This document shows, piece by piece, positions 13,608 through 56,206 of a stretch of 64,000 nt of DNA. This DNA comes from Eubacteriales bacterium (lineage in GTDB: Bacteria; Bacillota; Clostridia; Oscillospirales; CAG-272), in NCBI GenBank assembly GCA_045121195.1, contig JBGVFO010000044.1, forward strand, positions 3,899-67,898, read 5' to 3'. Below the pieces are notes generated by a model. It had not been told where the DNA came from and did no database searches. It worked only from the letters and a program-made list of their open reading frames with translations. The position numbers and the translations under genes were made by a program. The first letter of the stretch is position 1, and each line of letters starts with the position of its first letter.

Positions 13608-13635
13608 ACGACCATAGTTTCATATTCAATTCAAA

Positions 13636-13904
13636 GGCTATGACCGAAGAGAAGTAAGTGAGAAGAACACGCATAGAGAGTTGTCGGTTGGTGTAAGACA
13701 ACGGTGCCTCTTGCCGAAATACATTTCGTGAGCCGCACACCCAAAGGAACCAACGGGAACCGAGTAGGCTGTGACGGGTGCGCCCGTGATCGCGCTGGGG
13801 TATTTTTGTACCCGATAAGGCCGTTTGCCGTGAGGCGGCGGTGAATTGAGGTGGTAACACGGATTTTATTCGTCCTCTGTAACATTTTACAGGGGCGTTT
13901 TTTA
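13636..13904 (+). promoter_or_regulatory. T-box riboswitch leader, probable Tyr (UAC) specifier
   Basis: - K-turn halves AUGA 13640-43 and UGAGC 13729-33.
- Lower helix CGAAG 13645-49 / UUUCG 13724-28.
- S-turn AGUA 13653-56.
- AG bay AGAGAG 13675-80.
- Distal helix UUGUC/GACAA with loop GGUUGGUGUAA.
- Specifier loop GAAA-UAC-A (UAC = 13720-22).
- T-box sequence AAUUGAGGUGGUAACACGG 13845-62.
- Antiterminator helices GAGG/CCUC and ACGG/UCGU around a UGGUAAC bulge.
- Competing terminator 13874-13895 plus a U-run. Confidence 0.85.
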
Positions 13905-13930: not shown

Positions 13931-15472
13931 ATGGTACTAAAAGTTGGTTTGTTGGTCGTTTTCTTTAGTGTGATGGTAGCCGTTGGTCTGTATTGTCGCA
14001 AAAACTCTACCGATGTCAAGGGTTTTGTTCTCGGCGGACGCGCGGTTGGACCGTGGCTTACGGCGTTTGCATACGGTACCTCGTATTTCTCCGCGGTTAT
14101 TTTTGTCGGATACGCGGGACAGTTCGGCTGGAAATTCGGTATTGCCTCTACCTGGATCGGTATCGGTAACGCAGTGCTTGGCTCTTTGCTTGCCTGGATC
14201 GTTCTCGGTCGCCGCACCCGCTTGATGAGTCAGCATCTGGAAACCTCTACGATGCCCGAATTCTTTGGAAAACGATACGGAAGCCCGGCGCTGAAGATCG
14301 CGGCGTCCGTGTTGGTCTTTATCTTCCTGATTCCGTATACCGCGTCGCTGTATAACGGTCTTTCACGCCTTTTTGAAATGGCGTTTCCCGGTGTCAGCTA
14401 CAACGTGTGCGTCATCGTAATGGCGGTACTGACGGGAATTTACGTCATTGCGGGCGGTTATATGGCAACGGCGATCAATGACTTTATTCAGGGCGTGATT
14501 ATGCTTGTGGGTATCGTCTTGGTCATTGCCGCGGTTCTCAATACGCAGGGCGGATTTGTGGAAGCGCTGAACGGTCTTGCCAATGTGCAGGTAGGCGAAA
14601 ACGCTCCCGGCGCGTTCAACTCCTTCTTCGGTCCCGATCCCTTGAACCTGATGTTCGTTGTGGTTCTTACGTCCTTGGGAACTTGGGGTCTTCCTCAGAT
14701 GGTGCAGAAATTTTACGCGATCAAGAGCGAAAATGACATCCATAAGGGAACGGTGATCTCCACGCTTTTTGCCGTTGTGGTTGCCGGAGGATGCTACTTC
14801 CTCGGTGGATTTGGTCGACTGTTTGCCGATAAGCTGAACGTTTCCGGTGATATGCCGGCAGGCGGTTACGACTCGATTATTCCCGCTATGCTGGAAAATC
14901 TTCCTAATATCGTGATCGCGGTTGTTATCGTCCTTGTTCTTTCGGCGTCTATGTCAACGCTTTCCTCCTTGGTTCTTGCCTCCAGCTCCACGTTGACGCT
15001 GGATATGATCAAGGGGCACGTGGTCAAAAAGATGACCGAGAAGAAGCAGGTGCTGATTATGCGCGCACTGATCGTTGTGTTTATCGTGATTTCCGCGGTG
15101 ATCGCGATCAACAAGGATAAGCTCGGCTATATTGCCGATATGATGGGAATTTCCTGGGGCGCCCTTGCCGGCGCGTTCCTCGCGCCCTTCCTTTACGGCT
15201 TGTACTCCAAGAAGGTCACCAAGGCGGCGTGCTGGGCGAGCTTTGTGTTCGGTGCCGGTCTTATGGTTGCCAATATGCTGTTCCGCGGCTCGTTCCCCGC
15301 GATCCTACAGTCTCCCATTAACAGCGGCGTGATCGCTATGCTGGGCGGACTTGTGATCGTTCCCATTGTCAGTCTGTTGACACCGAAGCAGGAAAAACGG
15401 GCTGTCGATGAAATGTTTGAATGTTACCAGAAAGAGGTAATGGTAACGTCCAAGGAATCCTTGGGCAAATAA
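13931..15472 (+). CDS. sodium:solute symporter (SSS) family transporter
   Basis: 513 aa, about 13 hydrophobic segments. N-terminal region resembles PutP/PanF/ActP-type SSS carriers. First gene after the T-box leader; RBS GGAAAGGGAGG. Confidence 0.85.
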   Translation: MVLKVGLLVVFFSVMVAVGLYCRKNSTDVKGFVLGGRAVGPWLTAFAYGTSYFSAVIFVGYAGQFGWKFGIASTWIGIGNAVLGSLLAWIVLGRRTRLMSQHLETSTMPEFFGKRYGSPALKIAASVLVFIFLIPYTASLYNGLSRLFEMAFPGVSYNVCVIVMAVLTGIYVIAGGYMATAINDFIQGVIMLVGIVLVIAAVLNTQGGFVEALNGLANVQVGENAPGAFNSFFGPDPLNLMFVVVLTSLGTWGLPQMVQKFYAIKSENDIHKGTVISTLFAVVVAGGCYFLGGFGRLFADKLNVSGDMPAGGYDSIIPAMLENLPNIVIAVVIVLVLSASMSTLSSLVLASSSTLTLDMIKGHVVKKMTEKKQVLIMRALIVVFIVISAVIAINKDKLGYIADMMGISWGALAGAFLAPFLYGLYSKKVTKAACWASFVFGAGLMVANMLFRGSFPAILQSPINSGVIAMLGGLVIVPIVSLLTPKQEKRAVDEMFECYQKEVMVTSKESLGK

Positions 15473-42826: not shown

Positions 42827-43270
42827 ATGGAATATCGAGGATTCTTGAATCTATCCGTACTTGATGATCTTATAGCTGTGCCTATTGTCATTACACATAA
42901 AGAGTTGAATGTTGGTGCAGAAGTTGTTATAAAAATAGAATACAAAGAGAATACATATTTAGGAACAGGAAAAAGTCTCGAATGGACAGATGCCTTTGCA
43001 AATCTTCAAAAGGCTTTGCCGGACGGTGTGAATATATGTTGCTGTATGACATGCAAACATGGAACACTATGCCCATACGGAAACATTCCTGACTATATTC
43101 TTTGTTCGAAAAATGTAGTAATCAATGACAAGAACGATGTCATTGATTGGCTTGACAAGGCAGACGTAGAAGCTATTAAAAAATCTTCTTTGGGTTTATG
43201 TGAGCAATATGAGGCTTCAAATGTAAATGACTACACCTATAACGACTACTCATACTATCTAAATTATTAA
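42827..43270 (+). CDS. hypothetical Cys-rich protein (147 aa), AT-rich
   Basis: ATG 42827 follows GAGGAGGTGA. Central Cys cluster ICCCMTCKHGTLCPYG ... ILC ... LC. C-terminal Tyr/Asn-rich tail. I recognise no family. Confidence 0.55.
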   Translation: MEYRGFLNLSVLDDLIAVPIVITHKELNVGAEVVIKIEYKENTYLGTGKSLEWTDAFANLQKALPDGVNICCCMTCKHGTLCPYGNIPDYILCSKNVVINDKNDVIDWLDKADVEAIKKSSLGLCEQYEASNVNDYTYNDYSYYLNY

Positions 43271-43354
43271 AAGGTGTAAATTGAAATTAGCTTTGTGTCC
43301 ACAAAAGCAGTGCTTGTCAGGAAATTTGACAAGGCATAGATGAACATAAAGAAA

Positions 43355-43477
43355 GGCTCCCTTGTGTAAAGGGAGCTGTCACCGAAGGTGACTGAGGGAT
43401 TGTTTTACGATGAAATTTTTGCTTTTACAATCCCTCCGTCTTGCTTCGCAAGCCACCTCCCTTTACACAAGGGAGGC
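43355..43477. repeat. inverted doublet of two ~50-nt hairpin-containing units (REP/BIME-like)
   Basis: - Left unit 43355-43403: GGCTCCCTTGTGTAAAGGGAGC-TGTCACCGAAGGTGAC-T-GAGGGATTGT.
- Right unit 43427-43477, read as reverse complement: GCCTCCCTTGTGTAAAGGGAGG-TGGCTTGCGAAGCAAGAC-G-GAGGGATTGT.
- A 23-nt AT-rich spacer separates them. Confidence 0.7.
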
Positions 43478-43542
43478 TCATTACCTCCCGACAGTAAAAC
43501 TATAAGGTGTAACACACTATACCTTGAAGATCAAGGCGTGTG

Positions 43543-43580
43543 AAAAAAGACAGAGAATTTTCACATTCTCTGTCTTTTTT
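43543..43580. terminator. bidirectional intrinsic terminator
   Basis: A-run, then AGACAGAGAAT-tttcac-ATTCTCTGTCT (11 bp), then a T-run. Sits between convergent transcription units. Confidence 0.7.
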
Positions 43581-43582
43581 CC

Positions 43583-43630
43583 GTAGGGGCGAACTGCGTT
43601 CGCCCGCGGGCGTTCACAGAACGCCCCTAC
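43583..43630. repeat. 48-nt twin-hairpin repeat element, copy 1
   Basis: GTAG-GGGCGAAC-tgc-GTTCGCCC-GC-GGGCGTTC-aca-GAACGCCC-CTAC. The second copy is at 56159-56206. Confidence 0.8.
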
Positions 43631-43712
43631 GAGGATGATTATCCATCGGCAAGTAAAACCTGCTTTATGGAAGACACCCATTGTGCATTCCCTTTTTGAT
43701 TGACAAATGGAT

Positions 43713-43847
43713 TTATTTGCGGTTGTTGCTCTGATTCTGATTGTTCTGGTTATTGCTCTGGTTTTGATTGTTGTTCTGATTCTGATTGTTATTCTGGTTC
43801 TGGTTATTGTTCTGATTCTTATTCTGGTTCTGATTGTTGTTCTGCAT
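43713..43847 (-). CDS. candidate micro-ORF encoding a 44-aa Asn/Gln-repeat peptide
   Basis: MQNNNQNQNKNQNNNQNQNNNQNQNNNQNQSNNQNNQNQSNNRK. AAAGGA lies 9 nt upstream of the ATG. Same strand as, and directly downstream of, the secA-linked membrane genes. Coding status unproven because the DNA is a degenerate tandem repeat. Confidence 0.35.
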   Translation of the reverse strand: MQNNNQNQNKNQNNNQNQNNNQNQNNNQNQSNNQNNQNQSNNRK

Positions 43848-43948
43848 AGAGAGATTCCTTTCGACTCTGTACTTGGTTTTGTAATCTTGGATTACACCCA
43901 TAGTATGTCCGATTTTGAAATCTGTATACAGATAAAAGGAAAATTTCG

Positions 43949-56158: not shown

Positions 56159-56206
56159 GTAGGGGCGACCATTGGTCGCCCGCGGGCGTTCAATGAACGC
56201 CCCTAC
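56159..56206. repeat. 48-nt twin-hairpin repeat element, copy 2
   Basis: GTAG-GGGCGACC-att-GGTCGCCC-GC-GGGCGTTC-aat-GAACGCCC-CTAC. Same length and flanks as copy 1. Confidence 0.8.

Follow-up and report, generated by a model that had tools for sequence, protein, structure and literature searches.

A convergent repeat doublet in a Clostridia contig is probably a miniature, gene-less member of a DUF559 cassette family with triplex-motif ends

What kind of element is the inverted repeat doublet at 43352-43478 of a 64,000-nucleotide stretch of an Eubacteriales contig (JBGVFO010000044.1, assembly GCA_045121195.1; the whole 64-kb stretch is called the window below), and what keeps its structure while its sequence changes? 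The original prediction, made from the letters of the window, had described two ~50-nt units facing each other across a short spacer, had taken conserved structure without conserved sequence as a sign of selection on a folded RNA or single-stranded DNA, and had likened the layout to the REP/BIME doublets recognised by RAYT-type transposases. Our analysis leads, with moderate confidence, to a different partner: the doublet is probably a miniature, gene-less member of a family of cassettes that carry a DUF559 gene and whose ends are triplex motifs. The evidence lies in the anatomy of the units, in covariation within the variable inner hairpin and between the outer hairpin and its mirrored box, in the rule that joins a unit of type A to one of type B, in a DUF559 gene sitting exactly between the ends of full-length copies, and in the enrichment of triplex motifs at DUF559 genes sampled independently of the repeats.

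The doublet (~125 bp) consists of two ~50-nt units on opposite strands around a 23-nt, AT-rich spacer (43404-43426), as had been described, and the spacer takes the place of the DUF559 open reading frame (ORF) of full-length copies. Unit A (43352-43403, plus strand; covariance-model match of 82 bits, E 1e-26) is built in the order AAAG flank, pyrimidine (Y) arm, loop, purine (R) arm, inner hairpin and third strand, and reads AAAG-GCTCCCTT-GTGTA-AAGGGAGC-T-GTCACC-GAA-GGTGAC-T-GAGGGATTGT on the plus strand. Its outer hairpin, hp1 (43356-43376, plus strand), is a perfect 8-bp hairpin with pyrimidine arm GCTCCCTT (43356-43363), loop GTGTA and purine arm AAGGGAGC (43369-43376). The variable inner hairpin, hp2 (GTCACC-GAA-GGTGAC, 43378-43392, plus strand), makes the turn between the purine arm and the third-strand box, T-GAGGGATT-GT (43393-43403, plus strand), which is the mirror of AAGGGAGC. 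Unit B (43427-43478, minus strand; 61 bits, E 5e-19) has hp1 at 43456-43476, the hp2 core at 43440-43452 and the box at 43427-43437, and reads in reverse complement AG-CCTCCCTT-GTGTA-AAGGGAGG-TGG-CTTGC-GAA-GCAAG-AC-G-GAGGGATTGT; its hp1, CCTCCCTT-GTGTA-AAGGGAGG (43476-43456, minus strand), is again a perfect 8-bp hairpin with the shared GTGTA loop that had been claimed. The closing pair of hp1 and the base y before the box tell the two types apart: G-C with y = T in unit A (type A), C-G with y = G in unit B (type B).

The box GAGGGATTGT stands at 43394-43403 on the plus strand and at 43436-43427 on the minus strand, and the predicted ability of the two boxes to pair extends to inner arms of 14 nt (43390-43403 with 43427-43440) that a repeat finder scores as 93% complementary; the outer arms of the doublet span 25 nt at 92%. 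Within the window, the 19-mer CTCCCTTGTGTAAAGGGAG of the outer hairpin occurs once on each strand (0.00 expected), the box alone is not over-represented (four matches at no more than one mismatch, 4.35 expected), and there is a single doublet. A generic triplex-motif detector run over the 64 kb returned two motifs, namely the two units. As DNA, under a folding model of Watson-Crick pairs, unit A folds into two hairpins (-13.6 kcal/mol, z = -5.1) and unit B reaches -12.9 kcal/mol (z = -5.2); as RNA, the doublet region reaches -67 to -72 kcal/mol (z = -7.0 and -8.4 against shuffles). Rfam covariance models gave no match at the gathering score on the doublet region and nothing relevant at E values up to 10, the output being sub-threshold microRNA-like matches only. 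A scan had also flagged a minus-strand intrinsic terminator, hp1 followed by CTTTCTTT; this candidate was dropped, since the flank common to 166 units is wAAG only (unit start wAAG-G/C-CTCCCTT), with no T or A run beyond 3-4 nt.

Going beyond the original prediction, the box mirrors the purine arm of hp1. When a generic scan of the loci recovered other hp1 classes, the box had altered along with hp1, as the reverse of the purine arm and not as its complement: arm AAGGGAGG goes with box GGAGGGATT, AAGGGAGC with TGAGGGATT, AGGGGAGG with GGAGGGGTT, AAGGGGGC with TGGGGGATT, GAGGGAGC with TGAGGGAGA, AAGGAGGG with GGGAGGATT, AAGGGAGA with AGAGGGATT and AGAGGGGA with AGGGGAGATT. The purine motif allows G above a G-C pair (G*GC), either A or T above A-T (A*AT, T*AT), and T above an inverted C-G pair; by these rules 14 hp1 classes yield 110 canonical positions out of 112, compared with 54 of 112 in the direct register. 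Permuting the boxes among classes gave a mean of 75 (sd 4.3, maximum 95) and none of 100,000 permutations reached 110, a figure that overstates the number of independent events, as the 14 classes are not phylogenetically independent and comprise at least seven distinct substitutions. Both window units follow the mirror rule at 8/8 positions. The geometry fits as well, the third strand beginning at the end of the purine arm with hp2 at the turn. A riboswitch-like alternative, in which the box would pair with the 5' arm in antiparallel Watson-Crick fashion, was rejected: its best register explains one class change only, and it fails on the closing position x/z/y (G-C/T, C-G/G, T-A/A), on the T7 changes and on the change at the loop-proximal pair (also seen in L133). 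Because the mirror rule and the purine-motif triplet rules hold together, each unit is predicted to be a class II intrastrand-triplex motif with a hairpin in loop 2.

In Arenibacter (locus L028, 560-1720), doublets mix the hp1 classes CCTCCCTTT/AAAGGGAGG (box GGAGGGATT) and TCCCCTCT/AGAGGGGA (box AGGGGAGATT); each class has its own mirrored box, so total divergence between the ends of a doublet is compatible with the mirror rule at both.

The inner hairpin behaves in the opposite way to the conserved hp1, changing its sequence and keeping its fold. In the window the two hp2 differ in sequence, GTCACC-GAA-GGTGAC against CTTGC-GAA-GCAAG, and both are GAA-looped, which the original prediction had read as structure kept without sequence. 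The family bears this out: in an alignment of 25 units all six hp2 pairs had changed on both sides, with slid controls at or below 0.07; the covariation score was 0.291 against 0.077 for shuffled alignments, none of 500 shuffles attaining 0.291; and 167 units carry 127 distinct hp2 sequences. The triloops are strand-specific (77 GNA, 3 of the complementary TNC), and C-G closes 101 of 108 of them. DNA mini-hairpins of unusual stability, d(GCGAAGC) for example, are marked by C-GNA-G, and the heptamer GCGAAGC is the core of hp2 in unit B of the window. The linker that carries hp2 measures 17-19 nt in the window units. Of the two folded molecules proposed at the outset, we judge single-stranded DNA the better candidate; the conservation of structure itself stands.

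How widespread is the family? A 22-base gapped pattern made of the hp1 stem and the box, for which ~1-2 chance matches were estimated, was run on a 596-Gb genome collection and on IMG/VR, and returned at least 120 matches in the former and at least 120 in the viral contigs of the latter. The matches listed for the genome collection come mostly from Oscillospiraceae, Acutalibacteraceae, Faecousia and other Clostridia metagenome-assembled genomes, so that the similar sequences in other Clostridia mentioned in the original prediction are real; a few belong to Patescibacteria, Elusimicrobium, Arenibacter and Coriobacteriaceae. The family thus has hundreds of members, as singlets and as inverted doublets. 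A search of the openly available literature by sequence string gave no match.

The counts that follow rest on loci among the listed pattern matches. A covariance model built from 25 units gave 343 matches in 764 kb, and a hidden Markov model from the same alignment found 212 near-full-length units in 121 sequences of the genome loci. Of these units, 124 form 62 convergent doublets, boxes inward and hp1 outward, compared with 4-5 pairs in any other arrangement; the doublets span 99-191 bp (median 124). The hp1 stem sequence is conserved in the family, with a closing pair that covaries between G-C and C-G, and typing the units by this pair and by the base before the box (T in type A, G in type B) shows that 47 of 49 typed doublets are heterotypic A+B, as is the window doublet (plus-strand A and minus-strand B). 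Many doublets have 22-23-nt spacers that share AAAAG..ATTTCA..AAA, a conserved subfamily; these spacers resemble the ends of the DUF559 ORF only loosely, and a deletion-derivative origin of the 23-nt spacer is suggestive only. Same-type unit pairs have identical hp2 in 29% of cases within one locus and in 0.6% between loci, which points to local copying or conversion as a likely source of the sharing. The original prediction had asked where copies lie relative to genes: many units lie between convergent and co-directional genes and few between divergent ones (promoter regions), an orientation figure that is soft because crude greedy ORF calls put many units inside long ORFs that we hold to be largely spurious in GC-rich contigs.

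What occupies the space between the ends in longer copies? At two loci (L038, L115) an ORF of 122-123 aa stands in the spacer's place, between unit B and inverted unit A. Its ATG follows the unit B box GGAGGGATTGT directly or after a single A, a position in which the box serves as ribosome-binding site. The ORF ends in inverted unit A, whose box complement encodes ..QSLSQ and whose inverted hp2 supplies the TGA stop. Both ORFs match Pfam PF04480 (DUF559; E = 4e-30 and 7e-32), and the nearest solved structure is PDB 3HRL, an "endonuclease-like protein" (E = 5e-13). The full-length cassette, unit B, DUF559 gene and inverted unit A, thus measures ~0.5 kb. The same layout recurs at loci L121-L130, and the homologue P0105 keeps it in full at a fixed locus in ten samples. 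The RAYT-type mobilisation proposed at the outset does not agree with this gene, a PD-(D/E)XK endonuclease of the DUF559 family and not a Y1 (RAYT) transposase.

The association extends beyond these copies, with the reservation that the pattern-scan loci had been selected for units, so that DUF559 genes found there are not independent tests. One locus (L021) has a truncated DUF559 copy adjoining doublets, and another (L029) an intact gene with units on both sides. At a Jacksonbacteria (Patescibacteria) locus the gene starts with GGGAGGGATTT-ATG, and at the stop lies an inverted unit that belongs to a different class and has a mirrored box to match. Saccharibacteria and Arenibacter loci hold DUF559 copies with units nearby, farther from the gene. 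A search for DUF559 homologues returned at least 8000 scored candidates, all significant, many of whose clusters lie on contigs of 0.5-1.3 kb, typical of collapsed repeats. Steczkiewicz et al. (2012) placed VSR, DUF559 and DUF2726 in one PD-(D/E)XK group that includes a group I intron homing endonuclease, and Milman et al. (2023) reported "DUF559 domain-containing protein" as enriched 14-fold among predicted targets of programmed inversion, the expected outcome for genes that lie between inverted repeats. In the openly searchable literature, to which our search was confined (subscription journals lay outside it), we found no paper tying these repeats to DUF559.

L123 carries at 1980-2147 an insertion of 167 bp, bounded by inverted ends GGCATCACCGCGCAATTC and with a duplicated target resembling TTAA, that L121 lacks; samples of this one species locus differ in whether they have it, and it is an unrelated polymorphism of a miniature inverted-repeat transposable element (MITE).

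A sample chosen independently of the units comprised 10 DUF559 loci retrieved by tblastn from PLSDB (plasmids and chromids of Deinococcus, Photobacterium, Synechocystis, Sphingomonas, Novosphingobium, Sinorhizobium, Pseudanabaena, Picosynechococcus, Azospirillum and Neisseria), at which 400 bp on each side were scanned with the generic detector of Y arm, R arm and mirror strand. Perfect triplex motifs were present at 6 of the 10 loci, 17 in total, against 0 in 50 shuffles. Over a 50-kb background in Deinococcus the only two motifs abut the DUF559 gene on either side; over 50 kb in Sphingomonas, 7 of 13 motifs fall within 400 bp of the gene and the rest form gene-less doublets ~90-125 bp apart. 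Neisseria and Photobacterium have motif arrays beside the DUF559 gene and elsewhere.

Three observations on DUF559 loci stand apart. The long arrays of Photobacterium and Neisseria (L271 25247-26796 and 43526-44779; L270 23916-24610 and 32068-34303), one of them directly beside DUF559, space their motifs ~110-150 bp apart, unlike the singlets and doublets of Clostridia. On Deinococcus proteolyticus pDEIPR03 (L258, 330-800), inverted repeats of ~60 bp flank DUF559 and reach past the triplex motifs (GGGCCAGCGTTGCTG...). In E. coli K-12 (L256, 4200-4440), the last ~50 nt of the DUF559 gene ycjD are duplicated just downstream (GGAGACGGTGCTGGAGAATATTC...CTGAACCG); the duplicate, between the gene and copy #9 of the triplex repeat TMECO, looks like a relic of a second DUF559 3' end. 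The gene ycjD itself, found in 3378 of 5426 E. coli genomes, ends ...SPSP* inside CCCTCTCCC-TGA, and TMECO #9 lies ~170 nt downstream of it.

The viral contigs give a picture of their own. The 120 listed viral loci hold 189 units: 85 singlets of type A, 44 of type B, and 18 doublets. Between co-directional ORFs the viral singlets lie antisense in 24 cases and sense in 3, crude ORF calls making these numbers indicative only. Two viral ORFs (L161 1-351; L177 1361-1966) run into an antisense unit and end ...EQSLSQPCG*, the tail seen in DUF559; units can apparently donate C-terminal codons and a stop to neighbouring genes, or mislead ORF calling.

At the window locus, a Cys-rich ORF of 147 aa (42827-43270, plus strand) lies 84 nt upstream of the doublet, which belongs to the conserved block downstream of this gene and faces minus-strand ORFs. 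The repeat finder also shows, at 43542-43581, a hairpin of 17 perfect base pairs with an A run on one side and a T run on the other, likely a bidirectional terminator of the convergent genes; as this terminator is downstream of the doublet, the doublet is probably transcribed as 3' untranslated region (UTR). Homologues of the 147-aa gene, 64-93% identical, sit in different gene neighbourhoods, and five aligned downstream regions have in common a non-coding stretch of ~300 nt in which the doublet's position is taken by a doublet or by what is left of one. L131 has an A+B doublet whose hp2 stems are differently compensated; at the orthologous position L133 has a unit of another class, GCTCCCTC/GAGGGAGC with box GAGGGAG; L134 is degenerate and L135 has collapsed to a single hp1 hairpin. 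The window doublet is on this comparison old and travels with the neighbouring gene, and the class changes at the locus suggest replacement by the family resident in each genome. The ~300-nt block itself (43271-43581; L131, L133, L134, L135), which includes hairpins CTTGTCAGGAAATTTGACAAG, CACCTATAAGGTG and CCTTG..CAAGG and has no Rfam match, may be a structured 3' UTR or a small RNA.

Close by, and likewise absent from the original prediction, GC-rich hairpin doublets with a GTAG head lie at 43582-43631 and 56159-56206 (e.g., CGTAGGGGCGAACTGCGTTCGCCCG / CGGGCGTTCACAGAACGCCCCTACG) in the classical REP/REPIN layout. They form a REP-like family separate from that of the doublet, with 31 units in 19 of the 135 other sequences scanned. 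Elsewhere in the window, an ORF at 43713-43901 (minus strand) encodes almost only Asn and Gln (MQNNNQNQNKNQNNNQNQNN...) through an imperfect CAGAAC-type repeat and has no Pfam match, and a T-box leader (RF00230, 107 bits) at 13631-13880 (plus strand) precedes an ORF that starts at 13931.

How might such an element work? Bound in the major groove and running antiparallel to the purine arm, the third strand would make triples of the kinds G*GC, A*AT and T*AT. The fold under selection would be that of an unwound or single-stranded DNA strand running 5' to 3' into the element at each end, a DNA strand because purine-motif triplexes form in DNA and not in RNA, in which pyrimidine-type triplexes can occur (Holder et al. 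2015; PMC4666352). The DUF559 nuclease would recognise or cut the folded ends, and copies might then spread, or be made alike, through copying induced by a break, as in homing or gene conversion, or through an event resembling transposition. Doublets like that of the window would be internal-deletion derivatives or empty target sites acted on in trans, and the window copy would sit passively in the 3' UTR between convergent genes.

Several points weigh against this account. The age of the window doublet and its linkage to the neighbouring gene mean that this copy may be immobile or retained by the host. None of the 120 viral loci with their 189 units holds a DUF559 gene, and 4 of the 10 PLSDB loci have no perfect motif within 400 bp on either side. 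Polarity varies: Clostridia and Patescibacteria have the purine-motif strand running into the gene, Deinococcus, Synechocystis and E. coli have it running away, and one simple mechanism may not fit all lineages. No target-site duplication was seen in 51 doublets beyond the AAAG/CTTT of the ends, and no clean filled/empty allele pair was found; the E. coli genomes that lack ycjD differ by a larger replacement. In vivo footprinting with dimethyl sulfate by Holder et al. gave no protection of TMECO (PMC4666352). Nuclease activity, cleavage and transposition by the DUF559 protein are predictions, and the triplex fold in living cells is predicted from the sequence rules of the units.

Several other explanations have been weighed against the DUF559 cassette. 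The units could act as RNA, as structured untranslated regions: sense unit B would control DUF559 translation, antisense units at the 3' ends of genes (box, hp2 and hp1 in complement) would form a pyrimidine-motif triple helix (U.A-U, C+.G-C) or just stable hairpins that end or protect transcripts, and the doublet would make a long RNA hairpin like ERIC, RUP or Correia. A probably transcribed position upstream of a terminator, the RNA fold of -67 to -72 kcal/mol, the antisense excess among viral singlets (24 versus 3), the rarity of elements between divergent genes and an antisense strand that fits a six-triple pyrimidine motif, of a kind possible in RNA (PMC4666352), all speak for it. The strand-specific signals, however, namely the GNA loops, the y/z rule and the T that faces terminal A-T pairs, belong to the unit-sense strand, which is not transcribed in the sense direction at A ends and in most singlets; the flank is CTTT only, with no U tract; an acidic pH would be required for several of the C+ triples; inverted ends placed symmetrically on the two strands follow the logic of DNA; and there is no Rfam family match, while crude ORF calls leave the orientation statistics soft. 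We regard a role as RNA as unlikely. A similarly low probability attaches to repeats that the host keeps to pause replication or transcription or as recombination hot spots that create variation, as Holder et al. proposed for TMECO, with DUF559 merely inserting into or beside them. Retention of the doublet structure across homologues of 64-93% identity at the window locus would agree with host use, as would the gene-less state of most units and the report that, from one E. coli strain to another, rearrangement is more common at TMECO loci than at control sites (PMC4666352). Yet the units overlap the start signal and the stop codon of DUF559 in several phyla, which indicates co-evolution and not chance insertion; the hp1 class change at L133 resembles replacement by a resident family more than slow conservation; and PIT elements, as far as the summary of Hoyne and Maher in PMC4666352 goes, had no promoter, terminator or in vivo polymerase-blocking activity.

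Two mobile-element explanations fail their defining tests. A REP/BIME doublet mobilised by a RAYT (Y1, IS200/IS605-like) encoded elsewhere in the genome would account for two-type inverted doublets, intergenic positions, accompanying singlets and hairpins suited to single-stranded DNA, and a true GTAG-headed REP-like family does live in the same genomes. The doublet units, however, have no GTAG or CGTC head and are ~50 nt long with a mirrored third segment, their core is conserved across phyla, DUF559 is the only gene found between the ends, and no RAYT gene turned up, though no systematic search was made; we consider this origin very improbable. What survives of the original REP/BIME comparison is the dispersed repeat with singlets and two-type inverted doublets, and what does not is membership. 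An ordinary DDE-transposon MITE, moved by cut-and-paste at its terminal inverted repeats with target-site duplication, matches a multi-copy element of ~125 bp with ~50-bp inverted ends and an AT-rich core; it is scarcely credible for a family that leaves no target-site duplication in 51 doublets, abounds in singlets, keeps its ends constant while hp2 is hypervariable, obeys a mirror rule foreign to the recognition of double-stranded inverted repeats, and shows no DDE gene between its units.

If the DUF559 cassette is the right frame for the window doublet, what follows? BoxC, PIT and TMECO have been known since the 1990s with no origin, mobilising activity or function assigned, and the DUF559 link offers a candidate enzyme. 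DUF559, a very large "domain of unknown function" family that includes E. coli YcjD, would gain a partner in return. That the mirror covaries across many classes is evidence from evolution for a form of non-B DNA that has been hard to prove relevant in vivo. On a practical note, gut Clostridia and their phages are rich in these units, which can interrupt assemblies, lengthen ORF calls (...QSLSQPCG*) and pass for small RNAs in annotation. A broader proposition, which we put forward only tentatively, is that DUF559 with triplex ends constitutes a previously unrecognised class of selfish element across phyla, with BoxC, PIT and TMECO as its gene-less relics, a folded triple helix as the recognised structure, and spread or homogenisation by nuclease-induced copying. 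Should this be true, the mirror covariation would give comparative genomics its first proof that triplexes of the purine motif arise in living cells and are of consequence there.

Where does the element stand among known systems? The smallest known insertion sequences measure ~0.6-0.7 kb. Like compact insertion sequences and MITEs, the family has inverted ends that overlap the start signals and stop of a single ORF, and gene-less copies outnumber full ones; it differs in its ~0.5-kb size, in having no DDE, HUH or serine/tyrosine recombinase and in leaving no target-site duplication. With Vsr-like homing endonuclease genes it shares a small nuclease ORF within sequences that also occur ORF-less, and a patchy presence, and its doublets have the layout of empty homing sites; here, however, the gene is in neither an intron nor an intein, structured inverted repeats found at many loci form the flanks, and cleavage and homing are conjectural. 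REP, BIME and REPIN sequences are likewise short, structured, intergenic repeats that occur as singlets and two-type inverted doublets, the doublet being the likely copying unit and single-stranded-DNA hairpins the presumed substrate. The present units lack the GTAG (or CGTC) head that adjoins a 20-40-nt GC-rich palindrome in REPs, are larger, carry a third mirror segment and keep their core across phyla, whereas REPs are lineage-specific, and the associated gene is a PD-(D/E)XK DUF559 gene instead of a Y1 HUH transposase.

The closest likeness is to the "intrastrand triplex" repeats described by Holder et al. (2015; PMC4666352), namely E. coli TMECO and, earlier, BoxC and PIT. TMECO has the form CCCTCNCCC-N3-6-GGGNGAGGG-N3-GGGNGAGGG, a class II arrangement of pyrimidine arm, purine arm and reverse-Hoogsteen strand; MG1655 holds 23 copies, all intergenic, in two types set by the second loop; five inverted doublets in E. 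coli each join type A with type B; the triplex was demonstrated in vitro by circular dichroism and nuclear magnetic resonance; and no mobility-related genes (transposase or integrase remnants) lie near the copies (PMC4666352). Shared with our family are the class II segment order, the triplet rules, the intergenic and multi-copy habit, the types A and B with their A+B inverted doublets (5 of 5 in TMECO, 47 of 49 here), and a complementary strand that could form a pyrimidine-motif triplex. The differences lie in sequence (CTCCCTT/AAGGGAG/GAGGGATT here, CCCTCNCCC/GGGNGAGGG/GGGNGAGGG in TMECO), in the number of triples (8 versus 9), in loop 2 (a 13-25-nt hairpin, hp2, versus 3 nt, or 1-6 nt in the ITxF search), in the hosts (here Clostridia, Patescibacteria, Bacteroidota and phage contigs) and in the DUF559 link. 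Because a 17-19-nt linker with hp2 replaces the short second loop, we file the window element as a putative variant of the BoxC/PIT/TMECO kind and not as TMECO itself.

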